This document shows positions 7,701-40,700 of a stretch of DNA of 64,000 bases, in pieces. Below the pieces are notes generated by a model. It was not told where the DNA came from. It did no database searches and was given only the letters and a program-made list of their open reading frames with translations. Positions within the stretch are counted from its first letter, which is position 1, and every line of letters begins with the position of its first letter. The translations under genes and the position numbers were made by a program. The stretch spans positions 124,001-188,000 of the forward strand of contig JAQGDQ010000151.1 in the NCBI GenBank assembly GCA_030141605.1. Direction: 5' to 3'. The stretch is from Tubiluchus corallicola (lineage: Eukaryota; Animalia; Priapulida).

Positions 7701-10700
7701 TACATTTGCTAAGTTTTTAAAAATTGTGAAAAGATGATTTTAGTGGAATATTTGGGTGTAAGTAATTAAGTTATAGTTAGATTTAAAAATAAACTCAGAT
7801 TTTGGCAATAAATAACAGAAGTAGAAAGGCATTTTGGAGATTTTAGCTGTGCACTGCAATACTTATCTTGTTACAAAGAGAAGGACGTTTTGGAGATACA
7901 CTGTAATATTCCTCTAGTTGCATTTTTTACGAAAATATTTTGTTAGTGTGAATATGCATAACTGACTTATAAGGTTTCTGTTGTCTTTTGTTTGGCATAC
8001 TGTGAAACTGGTAATTTCACGCTGAGTATAAAAGTTGATACAACATTGATACAAATGAACTGAAAATAAAATAAATCGAGTTTTTAAATTCCAATGTAAG
8101 GTTAACAATTTTTTTTTATTTTCAATGCGAGCCTCACCCGGGAATGTTGAATTATTTGGGCTGAAAATTAGTCTTGCTGAATTCTCTTGCAATTTTAATT
8201 GACAATACAACAATTAACAATATGAATCTAAAACCAGGCCGGTTTCTCTCCCCGACTAATGAAAAATTGAGCATTTTCGTCACAGTATAACATACACTGG
8301 CAAAACATAGTTGCAGCTTAAGTGCTCTATTGTCCCAAAAAAGCGGCGAGCCATTTTACAGGCGCGTGAAAAGTCATGCTGATTGAGATATCAGCAGAGC
8401 TTGACTGATAATGATTGACATTAATTAATTGGTGTGCAGACATTTCGGCACAAGACATTTGGACACAAAAACATTCAGACACATAGGACATTTGGACACA
8501 AAGACATTGAGACACATTACTTAAGCTGTTTACAAAAGGAGTTTTGAACACTTGGTATTTTTGGCATTGGATATTTAGGTAGGTTGGTAACCTGAATTCA
8601 GTAACTGTTCAGTCACAAAAAGTAGCATTTGGATTCAATCGGGAGATCATACCGTTTATCAACATTGGTTATTTAGTTAGGTACTGTCCTGGAGATAAGT
8701 GAATTTAAATCTTTATTTGTAAAATCAAGGGCTTTCTAATGTCTAATAAACGATTATATAATTCACTTTGAAATATTCGTTTTCTCGCTTTCTCGAATGC
8801 AATCTTTCCTCAACAATAACTGCAATTTCTAGGTTTAAAGTAGCCGTAAATATTAGGGTGCATAGTATGCAGACATCCAGATGCAGTGATGGCAGTTGTG
8901 GTGATTACGGCAATTACGGCAATTACGGCAGGTGTGATTGCCACAGTGCGGCGACTACGACGACCACAGCGAAATTGCTGTAACTTTTTACACTGCACTA
9001 GTAGGGGTAATGCATGAAGACTGCGTGATTTAGGGATCCCCGGGGTTTATCCCGACCCCCCTCATTTTTTAAATAATGAGGGACCTATCCATTCCTATCC
9101 TTAACCCTAGCACCTTCTAAATAATGTCCAAGCATAACCCTAACTCGTTAAATTATGAGTTAACCGCCGGATCGACGAGTGTCGACGTGAAGTTATCGGA
9201 ATTGGTTAAACATAAAATTATGAAATTATTTTATTGGTAGTATTGGCAGTATTGGAAATTATACACGGTTGAAGTCTACTACAGAATACGATTGAATGAT
9301 GTCTACCACAGGATACAATACACATCTTCCTGATGAATTAATTATTAGTGAGATTGGTAACTTAGACGTCAGCAAAGAAATTAAGCAGATGCTTCAGACT
9401 CCTGAAATTTTACAAGCATTTTCAACGGTTGTGAGTTCATTGGTTCCCAAAATTACTATGAAGCAGATCAAGGAGGAGATGGTAGAAATGCGTGAAGAGA
9501 TTAAACACCTTCGTCAAAAGACTAATAACTTGCAACAGTACAGCAGAAGGTGCAGTGTTGGATTTTTTGAGAAGCCTTAAAGAGAAGATGAAAACGTCAC
9601 TGAAATGGTGATAAACTTTTGCAATGAAGTGCTTAAATTAGATCATATAAACGTGAAATCTATTGAGAGGTTCCATCACGCTGGGAAAGCAAGAGATGGT
9701 AGGCACAGAGCGATATTATGCAAATTCATTTGTTATGATTATAAACGGGACGTGATTCTTGCAGTTAGAAATATTATCAAGGAATGCCGTAGAGAACCAT
9801 TGCCTCGTCTAAAAGTATACGAGGACTTAACCGGATCAAACATGGAAGTGGTTCGAGAAGCCCTAAAGTTACGCAACAAAAAGAAAGTCCGTAGTGTATG
9901 GACGGCCGACGGAAAAATAATGATTAAGAACAATAGCAATAGAATCGTCCCTATAACTAATTTGTCCGAGCTACGTGAAGTATTTAGAGACGATGCGATT
10001 GAATCAAGTATTGTAGAGCAACGCTGCCACGGAGTTTACTGGGTGTACTGGATTTCTGCCAGTGAATCAGCAGAGTGTACTACACCAAGAAAAAGTGCTG
10101 GGTCATCAACGTCAATTTCCGAAGCCTGATATGTCCACCAGGTCTCTTCACAAATTAACTTATTATGGAATCCGAGGCATTGCCAATACTTGTTTTGTCA
10201 GTTATTTAACCAGTCGTACTCAACAAGTAAGAAGTAATAACTGTTTACCGGGTGTCCAAACTATGAAATGTGGCATTCCCCAGGGTTCCATATTGGGACC
10301 TCTGTTATTTTTGCTTTAAATAAATGATCTAAGTAATTTATTACCTAACTCGAATCTATTTCAGTTTACTGATGATGCAACTCTATTTTTTAATCTCTCT
10401 TCTTATTCAATAGAACAGATAAATGAGATGCTACCTGTAATTGCAGATTGGTTCGGATCTAACAAATTATCTCTTAAACCCAACAAAACAAAATGCATGA
10501 TTTTTCATAACAAAAACAAAAAAACTTCTAAATGATATAAATATATACATTGATGGATCTTTGATTGAGCGTGTAAATACTTAGGAATAGTCCTGCACGA
10601 AAATTTAGGCTGGAAGCCTCAGATAAACACGATAGGTCAAAAAATTGCAAAACAACATTAATTGGGTTAATTGGGTCAAAACACGTCATTCCCATAGTAG

Positions 10701-13700: not shown

Positions 13701-16700
13701 CCCAAAATATTCACAAATCTATATAGTTTGTAAAGACTTCTTTTTTGCAATTATTACTTATTAAACTTTATTTCAAATCCTGTAAAATTCAACTGAATTT
13801 GTTGTATTACACACAGCAAACGATACACTGCAAATTGCTTTGAGAAAACAATTTCATTCTAGAAACAACTTGAAATTGCAGCAACGAAGTTTCTCAAAAA
13901 ACATTTTTCCATAACTGACTTAACAGTCAGATTGACTTTTAAACATTGTTGACGTTTTAAATTTTGGGCAGTCATTTTTGTAGCAATTTTTAGCAATTTC
14001 TGGGAAGTTGTGTTTTCTAGGAAATAGTTTTTCTGTGAGAATTTTTTTTTTGGGAAACGCTTTCTCTGGGAAACAAACCTAATACCCTAATGGCTAGACC
14101 TACTGTTTGAAGAGGTTGGTCTGGAGCCTGTTTTATAACAGACAGTGTCATTGTGGATGAGGCACTACTCTATTCACTGCTACCTTACTAGGTATGCTCA
14201 GTGATACTAGTTTGTTATACCTCAGTGAAAGAGGTAGTCAGACCTTTGTACCAAATAAAAATGCTTAGATTCAAATTTCAAAGGATTCGCCCATCCATAC
14301 TCTTATCAAGGTCGTTGTAGCTTAACAATTACAAGTCATAACCACTCATTTATTTTTCTCTCCACCTCTGCTAAGTATTACTGTTGATATAGCTGTTGAT
14401 AAGCTGTTGATTTTATTTTACTCAACAAACCAGACATATTGCTTTCAGGTGGTTACCTCGTTTCAGCATAGAGCTGATATTGCAATTCATATTTTTAGTT
14501 TAACAAAAGCCTTATCAAAATTGCACAAAAGCAGATGGCTCAATAGATCCCTGGAAACAATTTATGTGGCTATTCTTCAGAGAACTGATCAATAAACGAT
14601 CACTAATCGACCAAAACTTAATAAATACATAATACTGATATATCTGGATTGAATGTACTGCCTCCTCAAAAAGTGTGCATGTGAAAGTGTTAAGGTGATG
14701 CAGTACTTGTCCAGTGCGTTTTGCAAGTTTATTTTAGTTTGGTTTACTGCCATTAAAAACATTCATGCATGTAATAATGGATTTATATAAGTAAACGTGT
14801 ATAAATAAAAATAAAAGGGAAAAAATTGTTAATAAATAATATAATATAACTGTTGGTAAACAATCAAACAGTAAATACAAATCAAACAATTATATCTCAC
14901 CACAAAGTCACCAGATTTATAGCACCACATTCACTAAAAGAAATACACCTTTTCAATAATGAAAATAGTTATGTATTTTATTTGGCATTATAAAAAGTAT
15001 GATTTTCATACTTCAATTCTTTTTAAAACACCAAATGCCTAGTTATTCCATAAAATAGGGCCATATAAATGTTGAAATTTTTCATAAGGTCAGTTCTTAT
15101 TTTTGCAATAATATGGTAATCATTGAGTTGCTTTGGACTTTCCATATAAAGCACTGTATTGTCTCTTGTAACAACATCATATAGCAACTTTTTTCTTGTA
15201 TCCAGATGTACTATGTGTCTAAATGGTCTATGTGTGCAAAAGTCATTTGACCAATTTTCTTGTGTCACAATGCCATATGCATCTTAATACCTTCTGTCTT
15301 CATATGTCCTTGTGCTTAAATATACTATGCGTCCAAATAGCCTCTGTCGAAATTGCTTATGTCAAAATAGCCTGTGTCCAAAATGTTACACCTACTTATG
15401 CCATGATGCTGACATTAGTATTAATAATTAGGGGTTAACTGAGTAAATTCATTGAATTACTATTTGTAGCGGCTTTTCATTCCTGGGCTCGAATGCATTT
15501 TTTACTTTCTTTAGTTACTGGTTAACTCATCATTTAACAGTTATAATTATTATTGGTATTATATTGTATTGGCTTTGCAAATGTTACTTTTCAATGTCCA
15601 GGCAAAGTATGAAATAAGGATTTTCTTAAACAAAGTTTATATTTTATTATGCTGTTTGTCTAGGTAAAGCATTGATCACAGATTTCAAAATAGAGTGTGA
15701 TCCATTTTTTGACGATGACACACCGCTTACCTACAAATTCTTCTACAAAACTGATCCTGAAAATTTAGATGATAAAGGTAGGTATCTTAATTTAAGACAG
15801 AATTTATGTATAACCATATGCAGTGCGTCATATGTAATAATTATACTTCACCTGAACTCTCCATAAATTGTGGTGTTCCTCAGGGTTCTGTTTTAGGACC
15901 ACTATTATTTTTGATTTTTATCAACGATATCAAAAACATTTTTACTTGTTCTCATATAATTCAGTTTGCTGGTGACACCACACTTTTTTCAATTTGCGAT
16001 CAATTTAGCCTTACTAACACAAATAATAGTTTAACAGAAATTTAGTAAAATTGTCTGATGGTTTGTTCTCCATTGTTTACTCTGCTGAAAAAGATTTTGC
16101 GTGATGAAAACCATGAAACAGGGTTTGTGGTGTGCAAGCTTTGTAAACACGTCTGTCATTCGTTTCGAGGAAGCCAGTTCGGACATCATGTCGTCCACCA
16201 CCATTAAATCTCCCGTTCGTATTTCCACATTTATGTCGTCACTGTACTCCATTTGTCGCAGTTCTTCGTCGGATGGCTGACTTTGCGATATCAACAACAC
16301 CCTCCTGGGTTTGGTATCGAACAATACGCTCCTACAGAGTACCAGATTTTTCACAAAAGTGCTGTTACCGGCATTAACATAATGCTACTAAATTGCAGTC
16401 TAGCATCGAAAGTTTGCTTCATCATAATCAACACACTAATTGTTGGATTAATTAATTTATTAATTAATCAAACAATTAGTGTGTTTATTATTAAATTAAA
16501 ATTAATTAAATAACTAAATTTTAACCTGCTAAATGCGTGTTCTTTTATAAGTTTTTAGTACTACAATCCATCAATATGTTTATAGCAAACAAAATGGAAG
16601 CGTGCAAACACATTCTACTCAAAACTGTGTGGGTGACTTGCTTGCACAAACATGTTCTACTCGATTGCAAAGCGAGTGTGGTTGATACGTCTCATGAGGG

Positions 16701-19700
16701 GATTGGTTGGTCTATTTTTAGTGCTGATCTTCCATTGGTTGTTGGCCATATACTAGAGTGTTTCGGAGCAAGTGCACTGATTTGCTTTGTGGATACCGTT
16801 GATGACACATCTCTCTCTGGATTAAAGAAGTTATGAAAAACACATACAGCAGTTTTTTCTCTCTCGTAAGATTTCTCTGCATCAGTCAGTACATCCATAC
16901 AGGTGCAATTTCAAGGGGTGTACATTTTGTTTTCATTTCACATTCGAGTAGTTACGTAAAATTTTCGCTAATTAAAAAGAGCAGGAATGCCTTCAAATAT
17001 TTTTTGTCCATTTATTCTTAGGTTCATTTTCGACGGTGTCCTAAATATGATATCATTAGTAAGATGACAATTAGGGGCAAGAGCCTCGCCTTAACCGTGA
17101 TGGAATATCCAGACTCATGGCTAAGCAGAAGAAATTAAAGGTGGCATTGAGCAGTGGAAATAGTTTTAGCAAACTAGACATACAGTTGTCTGGAAGACTG
17201 AGTTTGCTGGTGGCTGACTGGTGGCAATGACTCGTTTCCCTTGAATTTCGAAGGAATTTGAACGTTCTTCAAGTCGTCATTTCTTCTCAAGCGGTTTGCT
17301 CAAACCGAAACTTGCCCACTATTGGGACAAAGAGGAGATAAAATTCACACCTCCAGGCATGTTATTTCTCTCTGAGCAAATCTTCGGACAATGGACATCC
17401 AGACCTGACATTGCCACTAGACGAAGCATAGAAAAAGAACAGACCATCATTCCGGGCAAACCTGGCGTCAACCTCCAACTGCAAGAGTATGAGAAAATGA
17501 TAAAGGAGGTGGAAAAACTAGAGTGCGACACTGGATACTATGAAAACTGGTTGTTGCAGCGAAGCAAACTGAGCATATGGGAAGGATATGAATCGAAGCT
17601 GTAAAAGATCTCAAGATAATGGATGGACAATACGTCATTCTCAATCGAAGAGTACGCCAGATATTGGCGAGCGAAAACGAGTTCATAGGGCAATCAGTGA
17701 ATAACCTATGGCACAAAAAGCTTCCAAAAACAATGACGACAGTGACAACGTCAATGGTAGTGGCACTGAAACCATCACCACTACCACCACCAGCAGTGGG
17801 GACAGCGTGCTAGCAACAACAGCAAGTATCAGAGTTGGAGAAAAATGACTCATAATTCATCTGGATAAAGAAGAAGATCAGGGCATAGCCAACTTGTTTA
17901 CTCTGCCTCTGTGACCCCCACCCATGTTTCACCCATTTTGGCTACTGCTCCTGAATAAACTGAAAAATTTTTGCATCATGTAAAAACTTATCTTTTCTTC
18001 TCTTGTGGGCTTTGCAAAATCCACCTGCTCCCTCCAAACCGGCAACAATGTCAACAACAACCACGACTGCATGTGCCGCCATGAGGAGGCAGACGTATCC
18101 ATCCTAGCAAAATTTCGTGCCATCGGCGGCAATAGAGTGCTGCAGAAATACACCTTTGAGAAAGTCAAGTAATTGCTCTTTGAAAACAATCAGAAGAATA
18201 TTGTCATAGTCGGCAAACTGATTGCCACAGATGAGTGAATCGGGCATTGTCCTCACCATAGATGCCTTCCAGTGCAGGAAGAATACCAAGTGAAAAATTT
18301 GATAATTCACGAAATAGAAACTGGCATATATCACAGCTACAGTTTCAAACCGCCTCACCCATGGCATCGAGTTCCCCACTACAAGCGATCCACTTACAAC
18401 TATCAGAGTAGACACATGGCGCCTTGTGGGAGGAGGGTGTTGAAGTATTCGGAGTTAGACGACATTGTACGACAAACCAGCAGAAACCGAATCATGTATG
18501 TGAAAAGGCTCGAGATGTACAGATTCGTCAAAAAACATCTACCCAAAAATCTCGTAATAGTAAGCATAGAGGATCTATAAAATGAACGACCGCCGCCGGC
18601 CATACGATGGCAGAGCGATCCGGGCAGCCGAAACCTTGGCCAACTATCTACTAATTCTACGATCAGAACAGTCAACATCGTCACCGCGGCTTTGTTCGTG
18701 CATCATTTCAATCTGAAGTTGCTGCAAGCCAGGTTGGGTGGAAAACGGTACACTTGGAAACTGCAAATGCTTCTGCTGAAGCAAGGGAGTGATACTTTGA
18801 CCTCCGGATCAGCAGTTATTAATGGATTTTCACAGAAATGAAACACAGAAAATGCCATCCTTGAACTCTCTAACACAACGGACTGACACTCTCTGCACCT
18901 GCAGTAATTCAAACAATCACCAGGGCTAAAATTCCCTACAGACTGAACCTACTTGCACTATATCGGGAACTCTTAAAGTTACTGTGTTGTTTTAATGAAG
19001 TACTTCACGAAGTAGAACTTTTTCCCAAATTAACTTGTAAATGTGGTTAAATCATGCTAAATGTTTATCACATTGGAAGCATAATAATGATGGGGGAACA
19101 GACTTGAAAGGTTTCTTGCATGTTTCTCTTAAATTTAATGATTCCGTATACAAGAAAATATTGTTTGCTTGCCTGCTTAACGATTGTCATATGCAACTTG
19201 TTTGGGTTTTATGGTGACAAACAAACAAAGTCATCAAGTATTGCATAGCACAATATTGTATTGTTTGTACACCATCATCATAGCACCATCAGATGTCACC
19301 ACCTCACACAAGTAAGAACAGGTAAGTTAACTTAATCTAATCAAACGCACATTTAACTATTATTATTTGAAATGCAAGAACAAATATTTTGGTTATTTAC
19401 AAACAAAAATCCTTGACATCGCCTCCTTAAATGTATGTTAGACATTTACTATTTACTACAAAGAGTTTAACAGAGCAAACATTCGATCTTTATAAACTGT
19501 ACAATTCAATTTTTACAGTGCTTCTCCTTTAAACTCATGAAGTGAGCTTTCTATCAAGCATCATCTGTGAATGGGGGCGCTGCAGTTGCCCATCCTTTCT
19601 TTTTAGTGTTACGCTTCTCACTAGGCTGTCTCTTCCAACATGTTTTTCCGTTATTCGAGCAAGAAGCCAACAGCTTCTGGGGATTTCATCCATTATCAGT

Positions 19701-22700
19701 ACAACGTCACCTATTTCGACATCCTTCTTCTGACGATTCCATTTTGAGCGGATCTAGAGAAGCGGCAAGTATTCTGTCTGCCAACGTCGCCAAAAGACAT
19801 CAGCTAACTATTGGATCTGGCGCCATTTGCGGCGATAGATGTCTGCTAACGTTAACTTTCCAGGAGGTAAGTTTGTTAGGTTACACTTTGCCAACAGCAG
19901 GTGATTGGGTGTCAGAGCACTACAGTCTTTTGGGTCGTCCAAGGTTGCCATTAAAGGCCTACTATTTACAACGTTTTCAACAATGCAGAATAGTGTTGAG
20001 AGCTTCATCATCAAGAGCTTGTTCATTTGTCACAGAAAACAAATTCTTCTTGATATTCTTGAACATTGGTTCCCATACTCCTCCCATGTGGGGAGCTCGG
20101 AGCGATTACACTCCCATTTGATGTTCTCCTGGAGCAAGTCTGTCTGAATAATGCTGTGATTCCACTCTTTCATAGCTTTGGAAAGTTCATTATTGGCACC
20201 TATAAAATTAGTGCCACAGTCGGACCTAATTCTGTTAGGTTTGTTGCCTCTTCTGCTACAAAATCTGTGGAGTGCTTTAATGAAAGAATCTGTAGACATC
20301 GAGAAGATTACCTCCAAGTGAAGCTACGTGTGGCTAAACAAGTGAAAAGTGCTCCATAATGCTTCACCTAGATTCGACCGCGTTTGACCACAATTGGTCC
20401 AAAGCAGTCTACACCAACCGCAGAGAAGGAGCCTTGTTGAACTCTCTCTGGGGGTAAATTGGCCATATTTTGTTTCAGTTGTTGAGAGTAATGCAGCCTA
20501 CATTGTCTGCATTCATGGATTCCCACCATCACAATGCTCTACGGACTGAAGCCATGACATGTTCTCTTCCTGTATGTCCATTTACCTCGTGGAAGTGCTG
20601 TATGGCAAGCCAAGAGAGTTTATGATTTTTGGGAAGAATAACAGGATGGCGAGCTTCATGATCTGCTAAAGCATCTTACAGGCATCCGCCAACACGAAAA
20701 ATTCTCTCTTTGTCAATAAAGGGATCCAGCTTATACAGGCAGGATGATTTGGTTACGGAGTGTTCTCGGCATGTAGATTTGTTAAGGGAACACATCGTCT
20801 TATATTCTTTGCTGAAACTTTGTTTCTGTGTATGTCTGATCAGCTCATTCTGTGCCTCATTTAATTCAGTCAGAGTTAGATTTGTGGAGCAATCCATATC
20901 ACTTTCGCCAGAAGCTTTTCTGTGCAATATGGTTTTGGCTCGTAATAACCAGGCTAAACCTCTTTTTAGCCTGCAAAACGATTAGTAATGCTGCAACAAT
21001 TGATCTCTGACATTATTTGAAGTTCCTTTGCATTCTATGACGTTCACAGTGGCTGACTGCTTTACTTCTTTGTCATTAGCTAGTATGTCATCCGAGCCTA
21101 AATCAGTCTGCGGCCACGAAGCTTCATCTTTTTTTAAGAATGATGGACCAAACTTCCATCTATTGGAAAGTATCAATTCTTGAGCACTCATGCCTCGGGA
21201 TGCATCATCTGTCATGCATCAGTGCAGTTGTTTGTTGACTGTTGGGCTAACAAACCGCCATTAAGTTGGTGAAGAGACTTGCAAGACGAATGGCCAGATC
21301 ATTCCTAATGGGTCATAGACTGACGAAATGCAACTTAACATTCCTCATTTTATACTAGGTTTGTCTTTGAGTGAAACCAAAATCCCAAGGCAATCTTCCT
21401 CAACTAGCCATTTGACCCCCAGTATGCGATCAATTGGCAGAGGGCTCTGAGCTAAGGCAAGATTCTTGACTTCGCTTCCACGTTCTTCAACAGGCACAGA
21501 TGCCAAGACCTCATGTCTGTTGCTCATCCATTTAGTTATGTGGAATCCACCAAGAGACAATAAGGCAATCGGTTGCGAAACTAGATGCATGGCTTCATTC
21601 ACTGTGTTTAGCAATTTTAAAAGATCGTCCTCATAGAAGTTTCTCAAAATGGTAACGACAACATCTGCGGGAAACAGATTTGCATTGTCTTTTGCAGTCC
21701 TTCGCAAAGCAAATGATGCAACGCTCGGAGACCACACCCAAGCAAACAAGTGTACACACATTCTAAAAATGCATGGTTGACTGTTAAGATTCCCATCTTT
21801 CCACCAAAGGAAACGCAACATATCTCTGTGTTTTGGAGACACAATCACCTGGTGGAACATCTCCCGGATATCCTCTATTACTGCAATGGGATTGTCTCTA
21901 AACCGAAGCAAAACTCCAATGCACATGTTTGTAAGATCTGGCCCTTGCGATGCTAATTTATTTATAGATATTTCATTTGCTTCCGCTCCTGCATCAAAAA
22001 CGATGCGAGTTTTCTCCAATTTATTGGCATTAAATACCGAAAAATGGGGAAGAAACCATTTCCTGGAGTTAGGGTCATCATCGACCTCTTCTGCATACCC
22101 TTTCCTGAATAGGTCATTCATAGCTATAGTGTATCATTTGTGCAATTCTGGGTTCCTCTGCAGCCGTTTACGTAGACTTTCTAATCTAGTTGAAGCCATT
22201 TATAGCGTATCTGGTAAAACATCATACTCAGATTTAAATGGCATGTCCAACTGGTAATGCCCATGTGTTTTTGTGCTTGAAGCCTCCCATATATCGAGAG
22301 CACGCATATCATCTCTAGAGAATTGTCTGTCAGACTCGCTAATTTCAATTTGCCAGAATTGTTTTCTTTGCTGCTGCAAGGGATTGGTTTCTCCATATGA
22401 CAGTGCATTTGCCTGGGTCAAATTACTACAAATGCACCCTAAATTAGGAATGCCACCTCCTATAGGTCCATTAAGGGTCCAGCCTAGCTTCGTCTTCACA
22501 GCATGTGGGGTTAGTCTAGGACCTGTTTGTACCTCAAGGGGAATCAGTGTATCAGGAACATCCTGGCTGATCAAAAGGCCCAGCTCAGTTAGGTTCTGTA
22601 TCTGTGAACGATAGCGGGATTCCTTGCAAATGCGGCCATTGTTCTACCATGGCCAGGCAGTCCTTTTCTAGTAACAATGAAGGCCTAACAAAAACATAAG

Positions 22701-25700
22701 GCAAAGCTATTTTATTCCCAGTGTTTACCCCAATAACAGACATCTTCGTGATTAAAGTGTTTATCTTGGAATATTTCTCTTCTATAGTGGTTAAATAGAG
22801 CGTTCGTTTTTGTCCAGTAGCCCCAAGTTTGTCGAACAATGCTGCTGTACAAAAAGTGTTAGTCGAGCCAGGGTCAAGTAGGGCTAAAGTACGCATGGGC
22901 ATCTTCCCATCAACTTCAACCAAAACTGAGACAACAGGGAGAGCTACTTTGCCTCCTTCTTTAATACTAGCACAACTGCTAGAAGCCTCTGATTTGCAAT
23001 GTGTTGGCGCATTTTTCTCCTTGCTTTCATCATTGTTTTTAGAAGATGACATTTTCTCCAAGGCAGCAAATTTGAATGCTTATGACTGCAACCTTCTACA
23101 TCTCATCCTGCTTTGAAGCATCGAGCAGCCCTGTGCTTTCCTTTAATAAAACGATTGAAGCAAAGACCTTCTTTTCTGGCGATTTTCAATCTATCAGAAT
23201 CATTCATTGACTTAAATTTATTGCATAGCCTGAGTGAATGGTGTTCCATAGAATTACATAGAAAGCAAGGTATCTCTCGACGTTGAGAAGCCATTTTGCT
23301 TCCACTTCCGGTTGTATTTCCGCGTTGTCGTTCACTATTGTATTTCGCAATTGACACAAGTTCCTGCTCTGAGCTCGCTAAATACCCTTTGGGCTCCTGG
23401 TAGGCTAACTAACATTAATGTTGCCAAAGACAGGATGATTCATTTTGTCAGCTGCATCCTAAGTGAATTCGACTACATCCAATATCGTCCGATTCCTGTG
23501 CTCATATTTCAGAAGCCTGGCTACAACATCCTTCCACCTATCCTGGAACTTGAATGGGAGTTTTTTAATTAATTGTAGTAAACTGCACTGTGTATTAATT
23601 TGCAAACGTTTTTCACTATTTTCAAGGTTTCCACACAAGCCACAACCAAATCAGAAAATTCCTGTAACTTTCCTGACTCATTTATATTTGTGGGCTCAAA
23701 TTCAGCAATTCTGGAAAGCCAAACCTGTGTGACAACAATTGACAAGCCGAATCTTCCAGTTAAAAGCTGTTTAGCATGCCCATATGCAAAACGGCGGTAC
23801 ATGTAATTACAACTGTCAACAACTCTTAGCTTTACCAATGCAGAGTTGGGTTATCCTAGTGTACCTCGCTGCATTATCTTGGGTATAGTTCTCCACGATG
23901 GCTTCGAAACGCTTGATAAAGCTCCAGAACTTCATTACGTCACCATCAAACATTTCAAGCTGCACGTGGGGAAGCTGCATAGCATTGTACATTCTTAAGT
24001 GTTGTCTTTGGCCTTCCAACATGAGGTCCATAAAAACGTTCATGTCATTCTGACTAGCCCTACCGGAGAAATTCCTAGAATTATTTGAAAACGTTCATGC
24101 CATTCTGACTAGCCCTACCAGAGAAATTCCTAGAATTATTTTGAACCCTGTTACCATAAGAAGCCTGAGGCAATGTAGCCGGAAGTGGAAGTTGCGTATT
24201 CCCTGGGACGAAATATTTAGAGTTTGTTCAATCTGTGGTGATTTAAATGCAGCATGGAAGAACGGCGTAGTTTGTTTAACGCTCGGTTATAAACCGTCAC
24301 TGGGGGAATTTTCGAAGCAGGGCTGTACATCAGTCAAATAGATATCCCACCATCTACGAAGATAACCTGATTCATAGTCATCCGAAAAATTGACGGAGAT
24401 CTCCCCTTTTTCATATTCATTATAATCCCAAGGCTTGTTTCGCCCTAAAAAGTGCGCAACTTTAATCTTGCTACTGAACTGCTTCATTGCGAGAAGGTAA
24501 CCATAACGACCTTGGACGGAAGCATTATACACAAAAGGTAGACGCTTGTCAAACTGTGAACTCCAGTTTGGAAAGGCTAAATTTAATAAACCCTGTTCAC
24601 CGCCATCAAATGAACAGGCTTCAGTTTGTGAGTGACAACAATCTACTGTAAATTTCCAAACTAGGCTGAAATACAAACATCCCAGAATTAAAACAATCAG
24701 GCCACCCCACATCTGGGGCAGCTGCAAGCTCATTATAATTAAATAACTCATCAATATTATCTAATACTAAAGTATCAGCATCTAAGAAAACGCATTTAGT
24801 GAACTGTGTCATAGCCCAACAGTGCAATGTCGAGAATGTTACATTTACCTCTGGCCTACCTAGCAATTGCAAGTTATCAAAATCACTACTCTTTAATAAA
24901 TCAATCATTTGTACATAATCAAAAACATTACTATGCTCTGACATAAGTTTGCTAGGGGTGGGTGACCAAAATTGCTAGATGTCGAGTTGTACCATCTCGT
25001 CGCAAACTGTGTGCCAAGACAGCATAACTGTCGTTCGTTGCCATGGTGTGATAGGCCTCCATGGACGTATGATGAACTGCAGGCTTGGTGTCTGGTGACT
25101 GAGCTTTGGTGACGTCACACATTCATTGAAGCCAATCTTGTCCTTGTCCTTGGTTGACATGGGTTTCCTATCTAAAGTCTCGTCATTAGTTTCAGGTGAG
25201 GTCATGGTTGTACGCGACTTCTGACTGGTTGCACTACTATGTGAAGCAACTTCACTCTCAAGTCTCAACTGTTTTAATTTCATTGCTTTTAATTTAAGCT
25301 CCTGTTCCTGAATCCCAAGCAACCTTAATTCACTGACACTTTTCTTCGACCGTCTAAATTTCGACTGACTAGCACCTAAAGATGCTTTGGAAGGGCTGCA
25401 CTCACCAACTTGATACTGCGCTGTCTCTGTAGCTGCATCATACGATGACGTATCAGACACTTCACATGACATCACATTATATGAATGATCTGGATTCTGC
25501 TGACTTGTTAAGAGTCTGAATTAGCTCTTCTTTACTACCAGAAACTGACAGTTGTTTGGCAGCAGATATAAAATTGTTTGGGTTTTACGGTGACAAACAA
25601 ACAAAGTCATCAAGTATTGTTTAGCATAATATTTTATTGTCTGTACACCATCATCACAGCACATGCCCCTTCGTCATTTACTTCATATCAGACATGCACT

Positions 25701-28700
25701 GAGACACCATTTCCCAAAATTATACATTTTATCTGGAATGAAATGCAAATTCCTTAAATAAACTAATTGATTTCTTATCAAAATGTCAATTACAATTAAG
25801 TGAAATTAATCCAAGACTTTCAGTATATAACTAAATAAAATTAAACAAAATATACATACATCTTTGGCATCAAATCGTGAGTTACACAGAAAATTTGTCA
25901 ACACGCTATCACTGCTTTGAACACATTGAAACTTGAATGACAGGTATTTAAAACTAGGTCGCTAATATTGAAGCCAGATGTCACCACCTTACAAGTAAGA
26001 ATAGGTAAGTTAACTTAATCTAATCAAACACACATTTAACTATTATTAGTTAAAATGTAAGAAATGTAATCAAATGTAGAATTCTTTTGTACTCATAATT
26101 GTCTTTCATAAATAATTATGAATATGTAATTTTTGTGTTTGAAGAAATATTTTAATCTCTCTTGGGGTAAAACAAAATTTTCTCTGCATTAATTCAATTT
26201 CCTTAGCTATGAACTTTCCTAGATAGAACAAAACTTAATTAAATAGCATGTGTTGTTGAATAAACAAGGTGGTCTATCGTACATGTTAACCGTAACAAGA
26301 ATTACACAAGATTATTACGCAATCATAAAAAGCAATTGCATAAGATCATTACACAATCTTATAAACCAAATACACGAGATTATTGCACAATCCTTAGCGT
26401 GGCAAAGATTTTCACTTAATACGGTAACAAATATTAGAATATTTGCCGTGCGCTGTTGACACCTGGTATCAAACACGCATTTACTTGAATGAAAGTAGTA
26501 GTAGTAGTAGTAGTAAAAGTTGCTTGAGACCGTCACGTGATGCTAATGGAATGCAACCTGTCAGTAGTGTAATTATGCATGTACGCGCTGGCGCTCTGAT
26601 AGGGCTACTAAATAGGATAGGGTTTTTTTAACAACACGATAGGGTTACTAAATTAGGGCTAGAGCGAAATACTTCTGTTTGCGCTATTAATGGTAGTAAA
26701 GACTTTCACTTAATACAGAAACAAATATCCACTATCAGTGTTTAAGATTCTAAACCCACTTAAAGACAAATTTCATCCCAACAAGTTAAGGCTACTTAAT
26801 TAGGGTTTAGTCCTAAGGTTAGAGCTAAAGCAACCTCGCATGCACAAGCCTACATCACATTTCGCAACAAGTTAGGGTTAGAGTTAGGGTTAGTGGGTAA
26901 AGGTGAGGACTTGCACGCAACCGATTGTTGGTTCAAATCCCGCTTAAGCAAACTTTTATCTAGTTAGGATTAGAGCTAGGGTTAGCAACTAGTGTTAGGA
27001 TTAGTCATTATTTGGAGGGGGTTAGGGTAGTTCCATTATTTGGAGCGGTGAGCTAGGGTTAGCAGCTAGGGCTATGTTAGGAGTGTCCCAGGGGAACCCT
27101 AAATCGCCCAGATCGAGAACATCACCACTACTACTCTCTGTAAGAAACAGGCTCTTTTTCAAAATTTTATCCCAAGTTTTTTTTGATTCACAAATTATAA
27201 ATAATTTTTTATTACCAAAAATTTTTAGTACAAATATGTTTTACCATTTTTTCAGGAATTTACTTACACTACAGTCATAACTCTAGATTGCCACCTACAG
27301 TTCTTTCAGCAGGACTAAAATCTAGAAACTATCAAGCTGAAATTCTACTAATTGTTTCTGATTTCTACGGGGCATCTGTTGAAACTACATTCAACATTAC
27401 TGTGAGTCACTTTTGACTAATTAGCTACGTTTATGATCGTTGGTCTCCAGTAAAATAATAACAAACAATGTAAGCAAATTGTAATTGGTATTATTCTTGA
27501 TCTTTCTCCAGGAGGTACCAGTTTGGACTACACAGACTACACAAATTTAAAGGCTGCAAAACCGGTCAGGCACATAGCCAGGCGGCAGTGAATATCCGGA
27601 CTCCCCCATTCATTGAATCTTAAAAAAATTATGCACATTTTATATCATTCCTAACTGATACCCACAATTTGCATAGAGTGAGAGCAAGTGTGGTATACTT
27701 TATAAAATGTGTGTTTTAATGTAAGTTTAAATCATTACTCCTACAAGAAGCGTCACCTATCAGTGGATTGATTGTACGATCAATTCTCTATCCAATGATG
27801 TGCCACATGGCCGCCACTAGTACAGGGCTGCCACGCTACGACAGTTTTTTGGACCCATATCAGTGCCATACTTTTAATTTATAAAGCTGGTATCGACATG
27901 GTTTCCTTTAAACGATCTCTGAACGGAAGCCGTTAGTCGTACAGATGTTCTATATATCGTTGGATTCGCAATGGACCAGAATCAATCTAATGCGCTGTGT
28001 CAAAGTCGCGAGCCGATTTTTGTTTAACCTCAATACTGCAATAAATAGACTGTCTGGTCGAAAATTTGACGTTCAGGATCTGCTGTTATTTTCATTGTTC
28101 ATTGTCCGAGATATGCGCCTTTTTTGGAATAACTCAAAAACTAGATTGATACTTGACTAAATTTGGTCATATTTGTAGCTAGGGTAGAGCGCCAATTTAG
28201 CAGGCAATTGCGTGTCGTAACCCATTAACTCGTCTCAGTTATATGACCCAAAAAAACCCTCAAAATCTATCAATTTTTGATAAAACATTACTCCTGCAGG
28301 AAGCACCTCCTATTCAAACAAAAAAGTAAGTAAAGTACTATGCCTTGGCTATAGATACCCGCTCCGTTTTCTCGAGCCCTAAGTTGCTGCCGTTTTACAA
28401 GGCAATAAATTCCATACAATGCTTCCACTCTTTGAACGGAGGATGTAGGTCTTACAGAGGATTGCCATATACTATTGGATTTGCAATGAAACGTAGAATA
28501 AGGTGCTCTGTGCTAATATTTTTTTTGTCTTTTTTGTTTACCCGGACACTCATAAAACACATGACTTTCAATTTGTTCTGCAATATTTCCATTATTAACT
28601 GGCAAAATGACAAAAATGTTGCAAAATATGCACTGGCAAAGTGTACTATTATTTAAATACTTACTGCGCTATCCAGCGCAATTCTTATGCAATTTTGTAG

Positions 28701-34700: not shown

Positions 34701-37700
34701 ATATAATTTCAATGACTGCAATTCTAATTGTTGTTCACTTGCATTTAAAGTGCAAGTATCAAATTAGAATATGACATCAGTTTGTGAAAGAATTTGATTA
34801 AAATGAAAAAAGCTGAGTTACACTTTATTAATTTATTAGTCACTTATCTATTGTGAAAGTGTGTTGTTGGTATGCACACATTGTAGTTTCTATTTTTGTA
34901 TTTTTAAACTTCAGTGCTTTTTCTGCTTTATGTTCTTGGATGCAGTTTTTCTTTTTGTCATTTAAAAATTCATTGTGCTCGAATATTTATCCGAGTGGTA
35001 TGCTGGGCTTTCAGTACACCAGCAGTTTAACTTGTACGGGATTATTCTTTTATTAAATATTTTGTGTTTTTCTCTATCTTTGATAATTCAGTTTTATTAG
35101 CTCTTACTGTTATTTGCTATCACACAAGCTATGCTTAGTGTGCTATCGACCATTTATTTTTTCTGGAACGGGACTAAATACTGATATGGCAAAATACGCA
35201 GTACACTCTTGGATACTGGTTTAACAGTATTTATTGATAATTTTAAATTATTTCTTGGCAAAATTCTCAACAACATTTTATATTGTATTATTTAGCAAAA
35301 GAACATAACAAAGAGGTTTGTGTACTTTACTGATTTGGTTTCTGAGACAATTTTTTTGAATGCCATTCCGGGGGATGAGCCAGTTATCCTTAACACGGTG
35401 CCTCTTACTCTTAGTCTTGAGCGTCAGAGAGCACGTCATTTAAGAGGTAACTGTGCTATGATGCTTTTTTCACATGGCAACACTGTTAAAAATGGATTAA
35501 CTATCATTATATGTGTAATTTTATTACTAAAACATTTTTAGGGATAAAGCTCTACTGTTTTCAACTGATATGTATGTTAGTTCAGTTTTTGTTGGCTAAT
35601 GTGATGTGCCAGTCTTAGTGCAAATGATAATCACTAATTAGCATTATGCTGACTCAAGTAAAGGAGAACCACAATAACTCAATGATTTTTATATGTAGTA
35701 TGATATGCATTTCCCTGTGGTTTGGTAATTACCTATTTAATTGATATGAGAAAAAGCTTAACACAAAAGCTTAGGACTTGTAAATGAAAAACAAACATAT
35801 TTGTATGAAATGCAAAGCTTTTTCATTGTATAAGGCTTACTAAAATGGCTGGATGACTACTGGGAGATCATTTCTGAACACTTTAATTTTCCGTACTGGC
35901 CCTGGCTGTTTTATTATAGGAAAAATGTATATAAACCTGCACCTGCAAGTGGCTTTACGGTAAATCCCTGTGACTACAACTATTCATCTGTAAACTCTGC
36001 ATTGGGAGGCGCCGTGGTATGGGAGTGGCTTTGGTCATGAAGCAGAGCTGGAGTACCAGAATAATGCATAGTTGTATATACTTAGTGTGTTATCATTTTT
36101 TGGCTTGCCGAAACACACACACCTACACACCTGCACTCAGGTGCGTCCTCACACACACATTAAGTGAAACACACGCCTGCACTCAGGTGCACACTCACTC
36201 ACACGTTAAGTGAAACACACACACACACCTGCACTCAGGTGCGCCCTCACACACACATTAAGTGAAACACACGCCTGCACTCAGGTGCACCTCACTCACA
36301 CGTTAAGTGAAACACACACACACACCTGCACTCAGGTGCGCCCTCACTCACACATTAAGTGAAACACACACACACACCTGCACTCAAGTGCGCCCTCACT
36401 TACACATTAAGTGAAACACACACACACCTGCACTCAGGTGCGCCCTCACTCACACATTAAGTGAAACACACACACACACCTGCACTCAGGTGCACCCTCA
36501 CTCACACATTAAGTGAAACACACACACACACCTGCACTTGGGTGCACCCTCACTCACACATTAAGTGAAACACACACACACACCTGCACTCAGGTGCGCC
36601 CTCACTCACACATTAAGTGAAACACACACACACACACACCTGCACTCAGGTGCGCCCTCCCTCACACATTAAGTGAAACACACACACACACACACACACA
36701 CACCTGCACTCAGGTGCACCCTCACTCACACATTAAGTGAAACACACACACACACCTGCACTCAGGTGCACCCTCACTCACACATTAAGTGAAACACACA
36801 CACCTGCACTCAGGTGCACCCTCACTCACATATTAATTGAAACACACACACACACCTGCACTCAGGTGTGCCCTCACTCACACATTAAGTGAAACACACA
36901 CACACACACCTGCACTCAGGTGCGCCCTCACTCACACGTTAAGTGAAACACACACACACCTGCACTCAGGTGCGCCCTCACTCACACATTAAGTGAAACA
37001 CACACACCTGCACTCAGGTGCGCCCTCACTCACACATTAAGTGAAACACACACACACCTGCACTCAGGTGCGCCCTCACTCACACATTAAGTGAAACACA
37101 CACACCTGCATCTACCTGCATCAGGGCCCTCACTCACATAATTAACACACACACACCTGCACTCAGGTGCGCCCTCACTCACACATTAAGTGAAACACAC
37201 ACACACCTGCACTCAGGTGCGCCCTCACTCACACATTAAGTGAAACACACACACACACCTGCACTCAGGTGCGCCCTCACTCACACATTAAGTGAAACAC
37301 ACACACACACACACCTGCACTCAGGTGCGCCCTCACACACACATTAAGTGAAACACACGCCTGCACTCAGGTGAACCTCACTCACACGTTAAGTGAAACA
37401 CACACACACACCTGCACTCAGGTGCGCCCTCACTCACACATTAAGTGACACACACACACACACACCTGCACTCAGGTGCGCCCTCACTCACACATTAAGT
37501 GAAACACACACACACCTGCACTCAGGTGCGCCCTCACTCACACATTAAGTGAAACACACACACACACCTGCACTCAGGTGCACCCTCACTCACACATTAA
37601 GTGAAACACACACACACACCTGCACTCGGGTGCGCCCTCACTCACACATTAAGTGAAACACACACACACCTGCACTCAGGTGCGCCCTCACTCACACATT

Positions 37701-40700
37701 AAGTGAAACACACACACACACCTGCACTCAGGTGCGCCCTCACTCACACATTAAGTGAAACACACACACACACCTGCACTCAGGTGCACCCTCACTCACA
37801 CATTAAGTGAAACACACACACACACCTGCACTCAGGTGCACCCTCACTCACACATTAATTGAAACACACACACACACCTGCACTCAGGTGTGCCCTCACT
37901 CACACATTAAGTGAAACACACACACACCTGCACTCAGGTGCGCCCTCACTCACACGTTAAGTGAAACACACACACACCTGCACTCAGGTGCGCCCTCACT
38001 CACACATTAAGTGAAACACACACCTGCACTCAGGTGCGCCCACTCACACATTAAGTGAAACACACACCTGCACCAGGTGCGCCCTCACTCACACAGTGAA
38101 ATGAAACACACACACACGCACCTGCGCCCTCACTCACACATTAAGTGAAACACACACACCTGCACTCAGGTGTGCCCTCACTCACACATTAAGTGAAACA
38201 CACACACACCTGCACTCAGGTGCGCCCTCACTCACACATTAAGTGAAACACACACACACACACACACCTGCACTCAGGTGCGCCCTCACTCACACATTAA
38301 GTGAAACACACACACACTTGCACTCAGGTGCGCCCTCACTCACATATTAAGTGAAACACACACACACCTGCACTCAGGTGCGCCCTCACTCACACATTAA
38401 GTGAAACACACACACCTGCACTCAGGTGTGCCCTCACTCACACATTAAGTGAAACACACACACACCTGCACTCAGGTGCGCCCTCACTCACACATTAAGT
38501 GAAACACACACACACTTGCACTCAGGTGCGCCCTCACTCACATATTAAGTGAAACACACACACACACCTGCACTCAGGTGCGCCCTCACTCACACATTAA
38601 GTGAAACACACTCACACACACCTGCACTCAGGTGCGCCCTCACTCACACATTAAGTGAAACACACACACCAGAAGTTAGATGACAGAGGTAATAATTACT
38701 GACAGTAACATTTAAATTCTTACTACTACTCCTGTGCCTTTCTTAGTTTGTGAAATGTTGAACTTCTTTGTTAATATTTCAGGATCTGAGGTGACCATTG
38801 AAGGTGACTCGCACTTTAAATTACCCTCTAGATTAACATTCCTTGATGGAGAAGATAGTGAAGTTCATGACATCAAGGTTGTTACCATATGATACATAAT
38901 TGTTAAAGTTGTGACATTCATTTAAAATTTAATTGTTCTACATGAAAAACTGTAAATGTTATTTATTATTCGATATTTCAAAGAATAAATTCAGAGTCGC
39001 CAACTGGAGTTGTTCGGCTTAGACATAGACATCAATAACTTGACTTGCAACTCAACATAAAGACTTTTTCTGACGTCTGCGTATACTTAAGTGCTTGAAC
39101 TTGTTTTTTTATTGTTAAAAACATTGAATAAGCAATATCTAGATATTAATTATGTAAATATAAACAAAAAGTTTACTTCTTGTGCTACAGCTGAAATTAG
39201 CATACAGTGCCATACTCGCTTTGTTCACAACTAAATATTTGACTTGGGTCCTCCTAGGTTGTGGTTTTGCACATTTCTCCACAAAATATTGTATTTTCAT
39301 TCAGAATGAGCAAAAACAAATAAGTTATTGCAGTTTAAGTATTGATTTTATTGTAAAAGTTGCTCTTCTGTCCTGGAATTATGAAACTTACAGTCCTTCT
39401 TGCAATGCCTTTTCATAGATATGTGTTTATTTAAATGTCTTACAACAACAAAGATATTAGACATATTATAACAGAGATTTTAGACTTTGGATCAGTGGCA
39501 TGAAAAACCTGTTAAATAATCGGAGTGAATAAGGAAATTTCAATCAGGCAATATGAAAATCTCATAATAACGGCTTATTTAAATGAAAATCATAGAACTA
39601 TAAACAATTATTAAATTTTGTCCTGTTGTAAATAAGGGCAAACTGCATGAACACAATTGTTATACGTTAAATTTAAAATTCTGTTTTTGTGATAGCTTCG
39701 TAACTGAATGAAAAACAGAAAAGCTTTACTACTAGAAAACATTCAAATTTGTTGACACATTTACAGGTTGTAAACCTACGCACTAACCCATACAACTGGG
39801 ATAACACTTCAAAGCTGGTAAATACATCCGTTGTCAGCATAGATGTTAGACAAAAGCACGGTGACACTGACCATGAGGGGCATTTGACAGATCCCATGCA
39901 TTATTTCTTAGAAATACCAGGTATAGCTGCATGCATGTGAACTATTGCTTTTTCTATAAGTCTGGTGTCAACAGGAAAAGAGCTGTAAAGTTTGATTGTT
40001 TAAAAATGATTTAGGAGTTTTATAATTTTAAAATTATAGCTAAGGAGTGCAGGAATTCAGTTGGCATCCGTAAAAGTTAAATACTTTTTACAGTTTATTC
40101 ATATAAATCTTTCAGTAAGCATATGTCTTCTGTCTTTATCCAGTGCAATGTGCTCTTCCATTCCTTTAGGAGACAATTTTTTTACTTTTGATACAAATGG
40201 TTACATTGTTCTTTAAAAACACTGTTTGCTCTTTCTCTTAAAGTGACAATAGGAAATTTCATTCCTTAGCAAGAGGATGTCATTTTTATCGGACAATTGC
40301 AGTGAAGCAATCTTAAAGATTGGGCATGTAACAATTGCAAATTTCAATAGTAAATTGGTATTTCAAGTTTTTACAGTACCAGTACTTTTACAGTCTGTAT
40401 AGTGCCAGTATTTACCGTTTTTCAATGTAAAATAACTGAAGTAGCAACCTGTTATAGGTTAAGCAGTATGTTATAGATTGGATGTTTCACTAGCATTCTT
40501 CATCTAACAGTTTTTTATGTAGTATTCATGTAAGGACTTCCACAATTAATATAAATTTACTTGTGAGTGTTTTAGGCTTTATTAACATTTAAATTAAATC
40601 AGCCTTACAGCTTTTGCTTCTGGTTTTTCACATTCTTCGTTACAAGCAAAAATGAAAAGCAGGTACATTTATAAACTCAATGTTTTATTGGTCTTAATTG

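Follow-up and report, generated by a model that had tools for sequence, protein, structure and literature searches.

A BEL/Pao retrotransposon lineage with a glycogenin domain in its Gag linker and a possible tie to host glycogen

Glycogenin starts glycogen synthesis. Why, then, would a glycogenin catalytic domain lie within the Gag region of a retrotransposon? The window analyzed here, the whole 64-kb stretch of Tubiluchus corallicola DNA (64,000 nucleotides), raises this question and several that follow from it. Is the surrounding element what it appears to be? Does the domain belong to a family of elements, or did it fall once into a single dead copy? Is it open and under selection, and, if so, for what?

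The surrounding element

The surrounding element is a BEL/Pao retrotransposon (Table 1). Its domains follow the order Gag, protease, reverse transcriptase (RT), RNase H, and integrase, with RNase H partly deleted in this copy, and Pao polyproteins of 1800-2000 amino acids align collinearly in tblastn with the Gag core, knuckles, protease, RT, and integrase. A Gag that ends in three Cys/His knuckles is a feature of BEL/Pao elements, and three can be found by eye in the translation here (23270-23060), decayed. At least one of PF05380, PF03564, and PF18701 is present in 118 of the 120 RT matches listed of 259, with PF00078 alone in one of the other two and none in the last; the closest RT relatives among the matches listed are cluster P0122, with its Asterias members, and sea-urchin elements, and the second-best match belongs to a cluster that contains starfish members.

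Table 1. Parts of the element in the window, with the evidence for each
Feature	Position	Strand	Basis
Decayed BEL/Pao element	~26063-19199	-	LTR-like repeats and collinear Pao domains
5' LTR, start seemingly lost, edges approximate	25575..26063	-	Repeats; 91-93% identity to 3' LTR
Gag N-terminal segment (Ser-rich, predicted coiled coil, linker)	25063..25475	-	ORF 24975-25520, translations
Glycogenin (GT8) catalytic domain, intronless, own Met to WWxIY helix	24320..25062	-	phmmer, Pfam, tiling contigs of X1/X2/X3, partly X5
Pro/Gln/Ser-rich linker joining GT8 to Gag core	24044..24319	-	Translation; bridged by X2 records 9 and 13
Decayed Gag core with three Cys/His knuckles	23064..24043	-	tblastn of Pao polyproteins; translation
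Aspartic protease region (LLDPGS)	22594..23063	-	Weak Pfam Asp_protease_2 match (E 0.02); tblastn
Reverse transcriptase and beginning of RNase H	21276..22589	-	53-55% identity to best Pao proteins
RNase H end, integrase, C-terminal domain, decayed	19556..21275	-	Pfam rve (E 3.7e-4); tblastn
3' LTR, purine-rich tract before it	19199..19418	-	Sequence, repeats, alignment

The window copy itself is dead. Its LTR-like repeats are alike at 167 of 181 aligned bases (83/89 plus 84/92, or 91-93%), their ends being approximate and the 3' LTR some 300 bases shorter than the 5' LTR. In tblastn, ~166 codons are deleted at 21276 in this copy, a gap relative to all 11 relatives printed, and X2 contigs (see below) have a loose end at 21286, close to this RT/RNase H deletion. 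Single-depth unique contigs start at 26058, beside the 5' LTR. With regard to a target-site duplication and a primer-binding site of the element, the start of the 5' LTR is seemingly missing and the 64-kb window contains no tRNA. About 300 bases of the 5' LTR (25665-25960) have no counterpart in the 3' LTR; the depth of contigs, when summed, peaks over them, so that many LTR copies seem to carry those bases.

Other features of the window lie outside the element. We take three fragments to be like a Polinton/Maverick packaging ATPase (16031-16384, minus strand), a LINE reverse transcriptase (15791-16045, plus strand), and a LINE ORF1-type protein (9581-10129, plus strand). A 240-amino-acid frame with membrane segments (59602-60324, plus strand) looks polycystin-like by eye; it has no Pfam match, and a weak Atlas lead points to a PLAT-bearing cluster (0.78). 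The 313-amino-acid, very Cys-rich open frame at 42531-43472 (plus strand) has no Pfam match. A tandem array with a unit of ~52 bases occupies 36050-38630, and degenerate telomere-like hexamer repeats stand amid other sequence at 26600-27100, directly ahead of the element.

A glycogenin catalytic domain in the Gag linker

Pao polyproteins align nowhere between 24150 and 25700 in tblastn. What fills this gap? Its central part is the GT8 domain, which spans three minus-strand frames (25062-24320) in this copy. The N-terminal piece, with its (Y)xTxATNDxYA motif, begins with the ATG found at position 25062; the middle ORF (24974-24624) matches human glycogenin-1 in phmmer (E 4.4e-41) and Pfam PF01501 at 24.7 bits, over the cut-off of 24.3; and the C-terminal piece (24640-24290) matches solved glycogenins in the PDB (E 2.9e-23). 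Residues ~7-265 of animal glycogenins are covered, gaps of intron size are absent, and identity to the best homologues is 52-56%, a value for the decayed copy with X put at the breaks. The initial ATG lines up with the N-termini of host proteins, and the end falls a few residues past the WWxIY helix. On each of these points (an intronless glycogenin catalytic domain on the minus strand, borders that match the folded domain, and frameshifts in this copy) an earlier note on this DNA was correct, as it was in reporting no poly(A), UTR, or target-site duplication (TSD): a check around GT8 found no UTR remnants, neither AATAAA nor an A-run (6 or longer), and no direct repeat on its flanks (7 bases or longer). 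A weak Pfam match to SseK/NleB (E 0.04) was discarded as an echo of the GT-A fold.

FLDAD (DxD), FNSG, and HFLG..KPW are intact in the window copy and the equivalent of Tyr195 is kept, with TFSTLH at the catalytic Lys site and DGGEQG in place of DGGDQG (the first Asp retained, the second replaced by Glu), all of which the note had read in the same way; equivalents of Tyr197 and of the dimer contacts W128 and D160 are also kept. The synthase-binding tail motif, present in 128 of 158 host proteins, is absent from the three frames downstream of GT8; this is therefore a glycogenin catalytic domain and not a complete glycogenin.

The segment upstream of GT8 looks like Pao Gag N-termini, being Ser-rich with a coiled coil, but it scored no higher than shuffles against a profile of 48 relatives, and an Atlas comparison was uninformative. 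We call it Gag because of its position and frame; the note's placement of GT8 between a Gag N-terminal segment and the Gag core thus holds for the place, and the name of the N-terminal segment follows from position and frame instead of a profile score. Across the 48 relatives, the stretch ahead of the Gag core measures 66 to 484 residues. From the ATG to the Gag core there are ~490 codons here and ~245 without GT8, and since the latter figure falls within that range, GT8 is an extra piece in the linker. Such tolerance of length also favors a rather unlikely alternative in which the domain is a tolerated passenger, captured fairly recently and open only because breaks would kill Gag-Pol, with the enzyme idle; we return to it below.

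Family-level presence of the insert

Does the insert exist beyond this dead copy? Contigs from public sequencing runs X1, X2, X3, and X6 were aligned to the whole element and those from X1, X2, X3, and X5 to 24150-25250 (16 + 45 + 31 + 6 = 98 contigs); X2 and X3 represent one sample, and X1 and X5 come from separate studies. In X2, unique flank contigs identical to the window have depths of 185-220, and contigs ~93-96% alike have depths of 1300-1900 across the element as a whole and of 961-1682 over the greater part of GT8; in X3, depth is 50-64 over GT8 versus 8-11 in the flanks. These deep contigs, at 5-8 times flank depth, tile GT8 and bridge both junctions. Contig depth is not copy number, and we take it only to mean several near-identical copies. 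The presumed RNA run gave a single 49-base match to the element, in RT.

Several individual records cross the borders of the domain. X3 record 24 (24910-25202) joins the Gag N-terminus to GT8 with ~150 and ~140 letters on the two sides, X1 record 6 is a narrow bridge over the same 5' junction, and X5 record 29, a more divergent variant, bridges it as well (24838-25250). At the other end, X2 record 13 extends from the Gag core (23759) into GT8 (24395), and record 9 likewise bridges GT8, the linker, and the Gag core. No joint skips GT8, either in the 1 joint listed for the 98 contigs of 24150-25250 or among the 15 joints listed of 24 for the whole-element alignment. The junction-bridging contigs and the lack of a GT8-skipping joint mean that the insert belongs to the family: the capture of a glycogenin catalytic domain into a BEL/Pao Gag is real and is found at the family level. 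The note had named family members lacking the insert as the case against its proposal; the deep contigs and the X5 variant carry GT8.

Could the domain nonetheless be a one-off processed pseudogene that dropped into a dead element? The window copy is intronless and decayed, as such a pseudogene would be, yet GT8 crosses the junctions in deep contigs of three runs and, in a fourth run, in a divergent variant, TSD and poly(A) are absent, and the breaks are private to the window copy; a version of this idea that invokes a duplicated dead locus is contradicted by the open frame of the contigs. We regard it as having a vanishingly small chance of being right.

Some further observations on the contigs are recorded here for their own sake. 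The X1 contigs identical to the dead copy match the family-type ones in depth, and the two kinds alike are deepest over GT8 (depths of 96-127 and 61-66 versus 12-37 nearby); any one of capture enrichment, RNA, and local duplication could account for the peak. X5 record 28, a contig of 1254 bases, matches just 40 conserved bases (24685-24724), on both sides of which it has a different glycogenin-type coding sequence with a short motif absent from 369 homologues; it may be a host glycogenin gene or a second GT8-bearing element. X2 and X3 contigs contain no host-type exon on GT8 at 80%, a result uninformative for dating the capture.

Reading frame

If the family carries the insert, is it open? 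Between 25475 and 24043, the window copy has five frame changes (near 25138, 24955, 24630, and 24209 and at a 55-base tandem duplication in its linker, 24033-24141) and two stops (near 25124 and 24288). None of these seven lesions is common to the deep contigs, whose length differences cancel each shift in a hand tally; three of the shifts lie outside GT8. The tally starts at the first ATG (25475) and runs across short tiling contigs, no single record spanning the whole element; the indel table is complete, and the stop check covers substitutions among those listed (68 further). The K-to-T change at the catalytic Lys is likewise private to this copy, as contigs of all four runs differ there. 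Based on these contigs, we infer that in the family a single frame leads from the Gag N-terminus across GT8 and on into the Gag core, and GT8 is very probably an in-frame domain at the family level. The note had suggested just this, and the continuity of gag, GT8, and gag that it wished to see checked emerges from the tally as a single predicted frame.

Conservation and selection

Is the domain merely open, or has it been kept for its function? Across 158 homologues, 87 columns are at least 95% conserved; the window copy departs from the consensus at 14 of them (host mean, 0.94). Nine of the 14 could be assessed from the full difference lists of X1 records 5 and 6 and X2 record 11, read by hand. 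Four of the nine are private, the deep contigs having the conserved residue (the catalytic Lys site included), and three of these four are radical; the remaining five are non-canonical across the family, and all are conservative. With one further aromatic swap at a near-invariant column, seen in X1-X3 only, the family has 5-6 departures at such columns in all, of a conservative kind. The deep contigs retain the two acceptor-arm tyrosines, and X2 record 11, with 4 differences, has the acceptor Tyr.

These residues bear on whether the domain still works as an enzyme. It might instead be a non-catalytic scaffold or decoy, either a Gag dimerization module or a binder of host glycogenin that diverts glycogen priming. 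The dimer-contact residues are kept, this copy has Glu at the second Asp of DGGDQG, and GYG2 offers a precedent as a poorly active regulatory glycogenin (excerpts of PMC12267440). Among homologues, that site is Glu in 0 of 369 and Asp in 301 of 369, and Glu, if common to the family, would argue against normal catalysis. Against such a role, the DxD, the catalytic Lys site, HFLG..KPW, and the acceptor Tyr are intact in the family wherever the contigs can be read, and we consider it improbable.

Divergence among lineages bears on constraint. Between the X5 variant and the window copy, GT8 differs at 48 of 475 positions and the adjacent Gag at 28 of 152 (Fisher p=0.0096), a contrast based on two contigs at depth 7. 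X1 goes in the same direction without reaching significance, both for GT8 versus Gag (17/368 versus 15/171, p=0.08) and for GT8 versus RT plus integrase (p=0.13). How much of this could neutral drift produce? In simulations on 56 host coding sequences, 84% of invariant columns were retained in 90% of simulations at 5% drift, in 12% at 10%, and in 2% (0.019) at 12%. Neutral drift of 5-8% from an ordinary glycogenin can account for the profile of this copy (about 7% of simulations), and so this profile does not by itself show selection. The profile would do so if the path since capture exceeded ~12%, as the divergence of the X5 Gag and the decay of this copy suggest.

The drift fit is compatible with an idle enzyme in a length-tolerant linker, and the fusion was not found in other taxa (among the protein and metagenome matches listed; see below). 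However, that account must face the better conservation of GT8 than of adjacent Gag between lineages (p=0.01), the split between family-shared departures, all conservative, and private ones, mostly radical, the coincidence of the borders with the folded domain, and the survival of the domain through 7-9% LTR divergence and into near-identical deep copies. The sequence comparisons thus give moderate support for purifying selection on GT8, and we think that the domain is probably selected for a GT8 function.

Origin of the domain

Two quick trees place GT8 among animal glycogenins on a long branch (1.9-2.0) with no stable sister. A crustacean donor was considered, based on a MEAY start and NSGMF that GT8 shares with P0074 and krill and on a grouping at 89 in the first tree, and was dropped when the grouping was lost with more rows and the sharing of rare residues favored no group. 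The long branch was also set aside as a sign of age, because the decay of this copy inflates its length. We posit that a spliced glycogenin mRNA was captured by template switching during reverse transcription and trimmed to the folded domain; the reasons are the lack of introns, the start at the host Met, the end at the domain border, and the absence of TSD and poly(A).

A proposed mechanism

What might a glycogenin do in Gag? A Gag segment that precedes the capsid core would face outward or be removed by the protease. As described in excerpts of PMC12267440 and PMC8203840, glycogenin is a dimer, with Tyr197, Asp160, and Trp128 as dimer contacts, that transfers glucose from UDP-glucose onto Tyr195 and binds glycogen synthase through its C-terminal tail. 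We predict that Gag assembly would gather GT8 copies as dimers and that dimerized GT8 would build a short alpha-1,4-glucan on the kept Tyr. Being tail-less, GT8 would then need either the glycogen enzymes of the host or a host glycogenin as partner for attachment to glycogen granules, and a granule-bound particle could be sheltered there or carried in glycogen-rich germ cells and eggs.

Our overall reading, to which we give slightly less than an even chance, is of a BEL/Pao lineage with a host-derived glycogenin domain in its Gag linker, likely translated in-frame within Gag-Pol, that is predicted to self-glucosylate Gag and thereby link particles to host glycogen. Its components differ in strength. 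Whether GT8 actively self-glucosylates is a matter of even chances; human GYG2 has the Tyr yet rarely self-glucosylates (PMC12267440), and mimivirus R707 has the Tyr and does not self-glucosylate (PMC9614988), precedents by which a kept Tyr alone would be no guarantee. That glycogen tethering is the purpose of the domain seems doubtful at present. Still bolder, and unlikely, is the idea that the particle sits on or in glycogen granules through GT8-Gag self-glucosylation and host chain extension, hidden from silencing and delivered to reforming egg nuclei. In frog egg extract, nuclear assembly around naked DNA needs glycogen (PMC2119932); a link to glycogen could be of benefit because glycogen takes part in the assembly of chromatin and nuclei, which is not evidence for the element.

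Must the acceptor be Gag itself? GT8 could act in trans as a glucosyltransferase, possibly released by the protease, with Gag glycans or host restriction or silencing proteins as acceptors. R707, which polymerizes glucose without self-glucosylation (PMC9614988), is a precedent, and the lost synthase-binding tail, the 5-6 family changes at near-invariant columns, and the long branch (1.9-2.0) would fit. Yet the element retains the two acceptor-arm tyrosines as well as the equivalents of W128 and D160, decay of this copy inflates the branch, and no acceptor is known. We judge action in trans to be quite unlikely.

If the self-glucosylation of Gag is true, a metabolic glycosyltransferase fixed in Gag would be a new class of accessory domain, and retroelement particles would be tied to glycogen biology through a natural self-glycosylating intracellular capsid protein. 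The use of glycogen granules by genetic parasites as a germ-line shelter or means of transport would become testable. More generally, the accessory domains of retrotransposons hint at the limits that hosts place on elements.

Searches for further cases

Is this lineage alone? Pao Pfam domains are found in 0 of 120 GT8 matches listed of 1422 (206-2000 amino acids) and in 0 of 120 GT8 matches of 1093-3481 amino acids (all matches), and similarity to Pao proteins at 1e-5 in 0 of 240 listed GT8-bearing proteins. Conversely, PF01501 is found in 0 of 120 RT relatives listed of 259, all of at most 2000 amino acids and shorter than a full fusion. The best 150 of 2356 representatives include 129 new proteins, none of which has a Pao match; Pao flanks occur in 0 of 80 metagenome loci examined of 496 (mostly short contigs), and viral contigs gave nothing for the RT of the element or for GT8. 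Transposable elements are usually masked from protein sets, and these blanks are therefore weak. The note knew of no described example, and none turned up in the 489 listed proteins, in the 80 metagenome loci, or in the literature searched for retrotransposons with a glycogenin or GT8 domain (sources other than subscription journals, Repbase, Dfam, and GyDB). With no second case found, the fusion looks lineage-restricted, albeit with weak power.

Comparison with known systems

As a BEL/Pao element (Belpaoviridae), this one is conventional in its LTR-gag-PR-RT-RH-IN-LTR order, its Cys knuckles, its RT (53-55% identical), and its length, which lies inside the 4.2-10 kb range given in excerpts of a BEL/Pao survey (PMC3118150). 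It differs by ~250 extra GT8 residues in Gag, with PF01501 in none of the 120 relatives listed; the excerpted survey mentions env as the sole extra (PMC3118150). Compared with animal glycogenin of the GYG1 type, the whole catalytic domain, the DxD, the acceptor Tyr, and the dimer contacts are alike, whereas here the domain is embedded in Gag, lacks the C-terminal linker and synthase-binding tail, and has several conservative changes at near-invariant columns.

Other retroelements have acquired domains as well. Excerpts of published work describe a retained AlkB domain in orchid Gypsy elements (PMC9289625), an SF1 helicase (insect), a chromodomain, and an exonuclease as accessory domains of LTR elements (PMC6338049), and apoptosis and ubiquitin domains (BIR/BCL2/MATH) in planarian Burro (PMC6431247). 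As in the AlkB, SF1 helicase, and Burro cases so described, a captured cellular or viral domain is retained through replication, sometimes in-frame; in contrast to those cases, which concern nucleic acid, chromatin, apoptosis, or ubiquitin, the domain here is a carbohydrate-active enzyme, in a BEL/Pao element and in a Gag linker. Another parallel is the mimivirus glycogenin paralogue R707, likewise a glycogenin-like enzyme of a mobile element, which excerpts of PMC9614988 propose to glycosylate the virus's own particle proteins. R707, however, is encoded by a giant DNA virus as a gene of its own, has 26% identity to glycogenin-1, and does not self-glucosylate (PMC9614988); the element described here carries a close relative of animal glycogenin, fused into a retroelement Gag.
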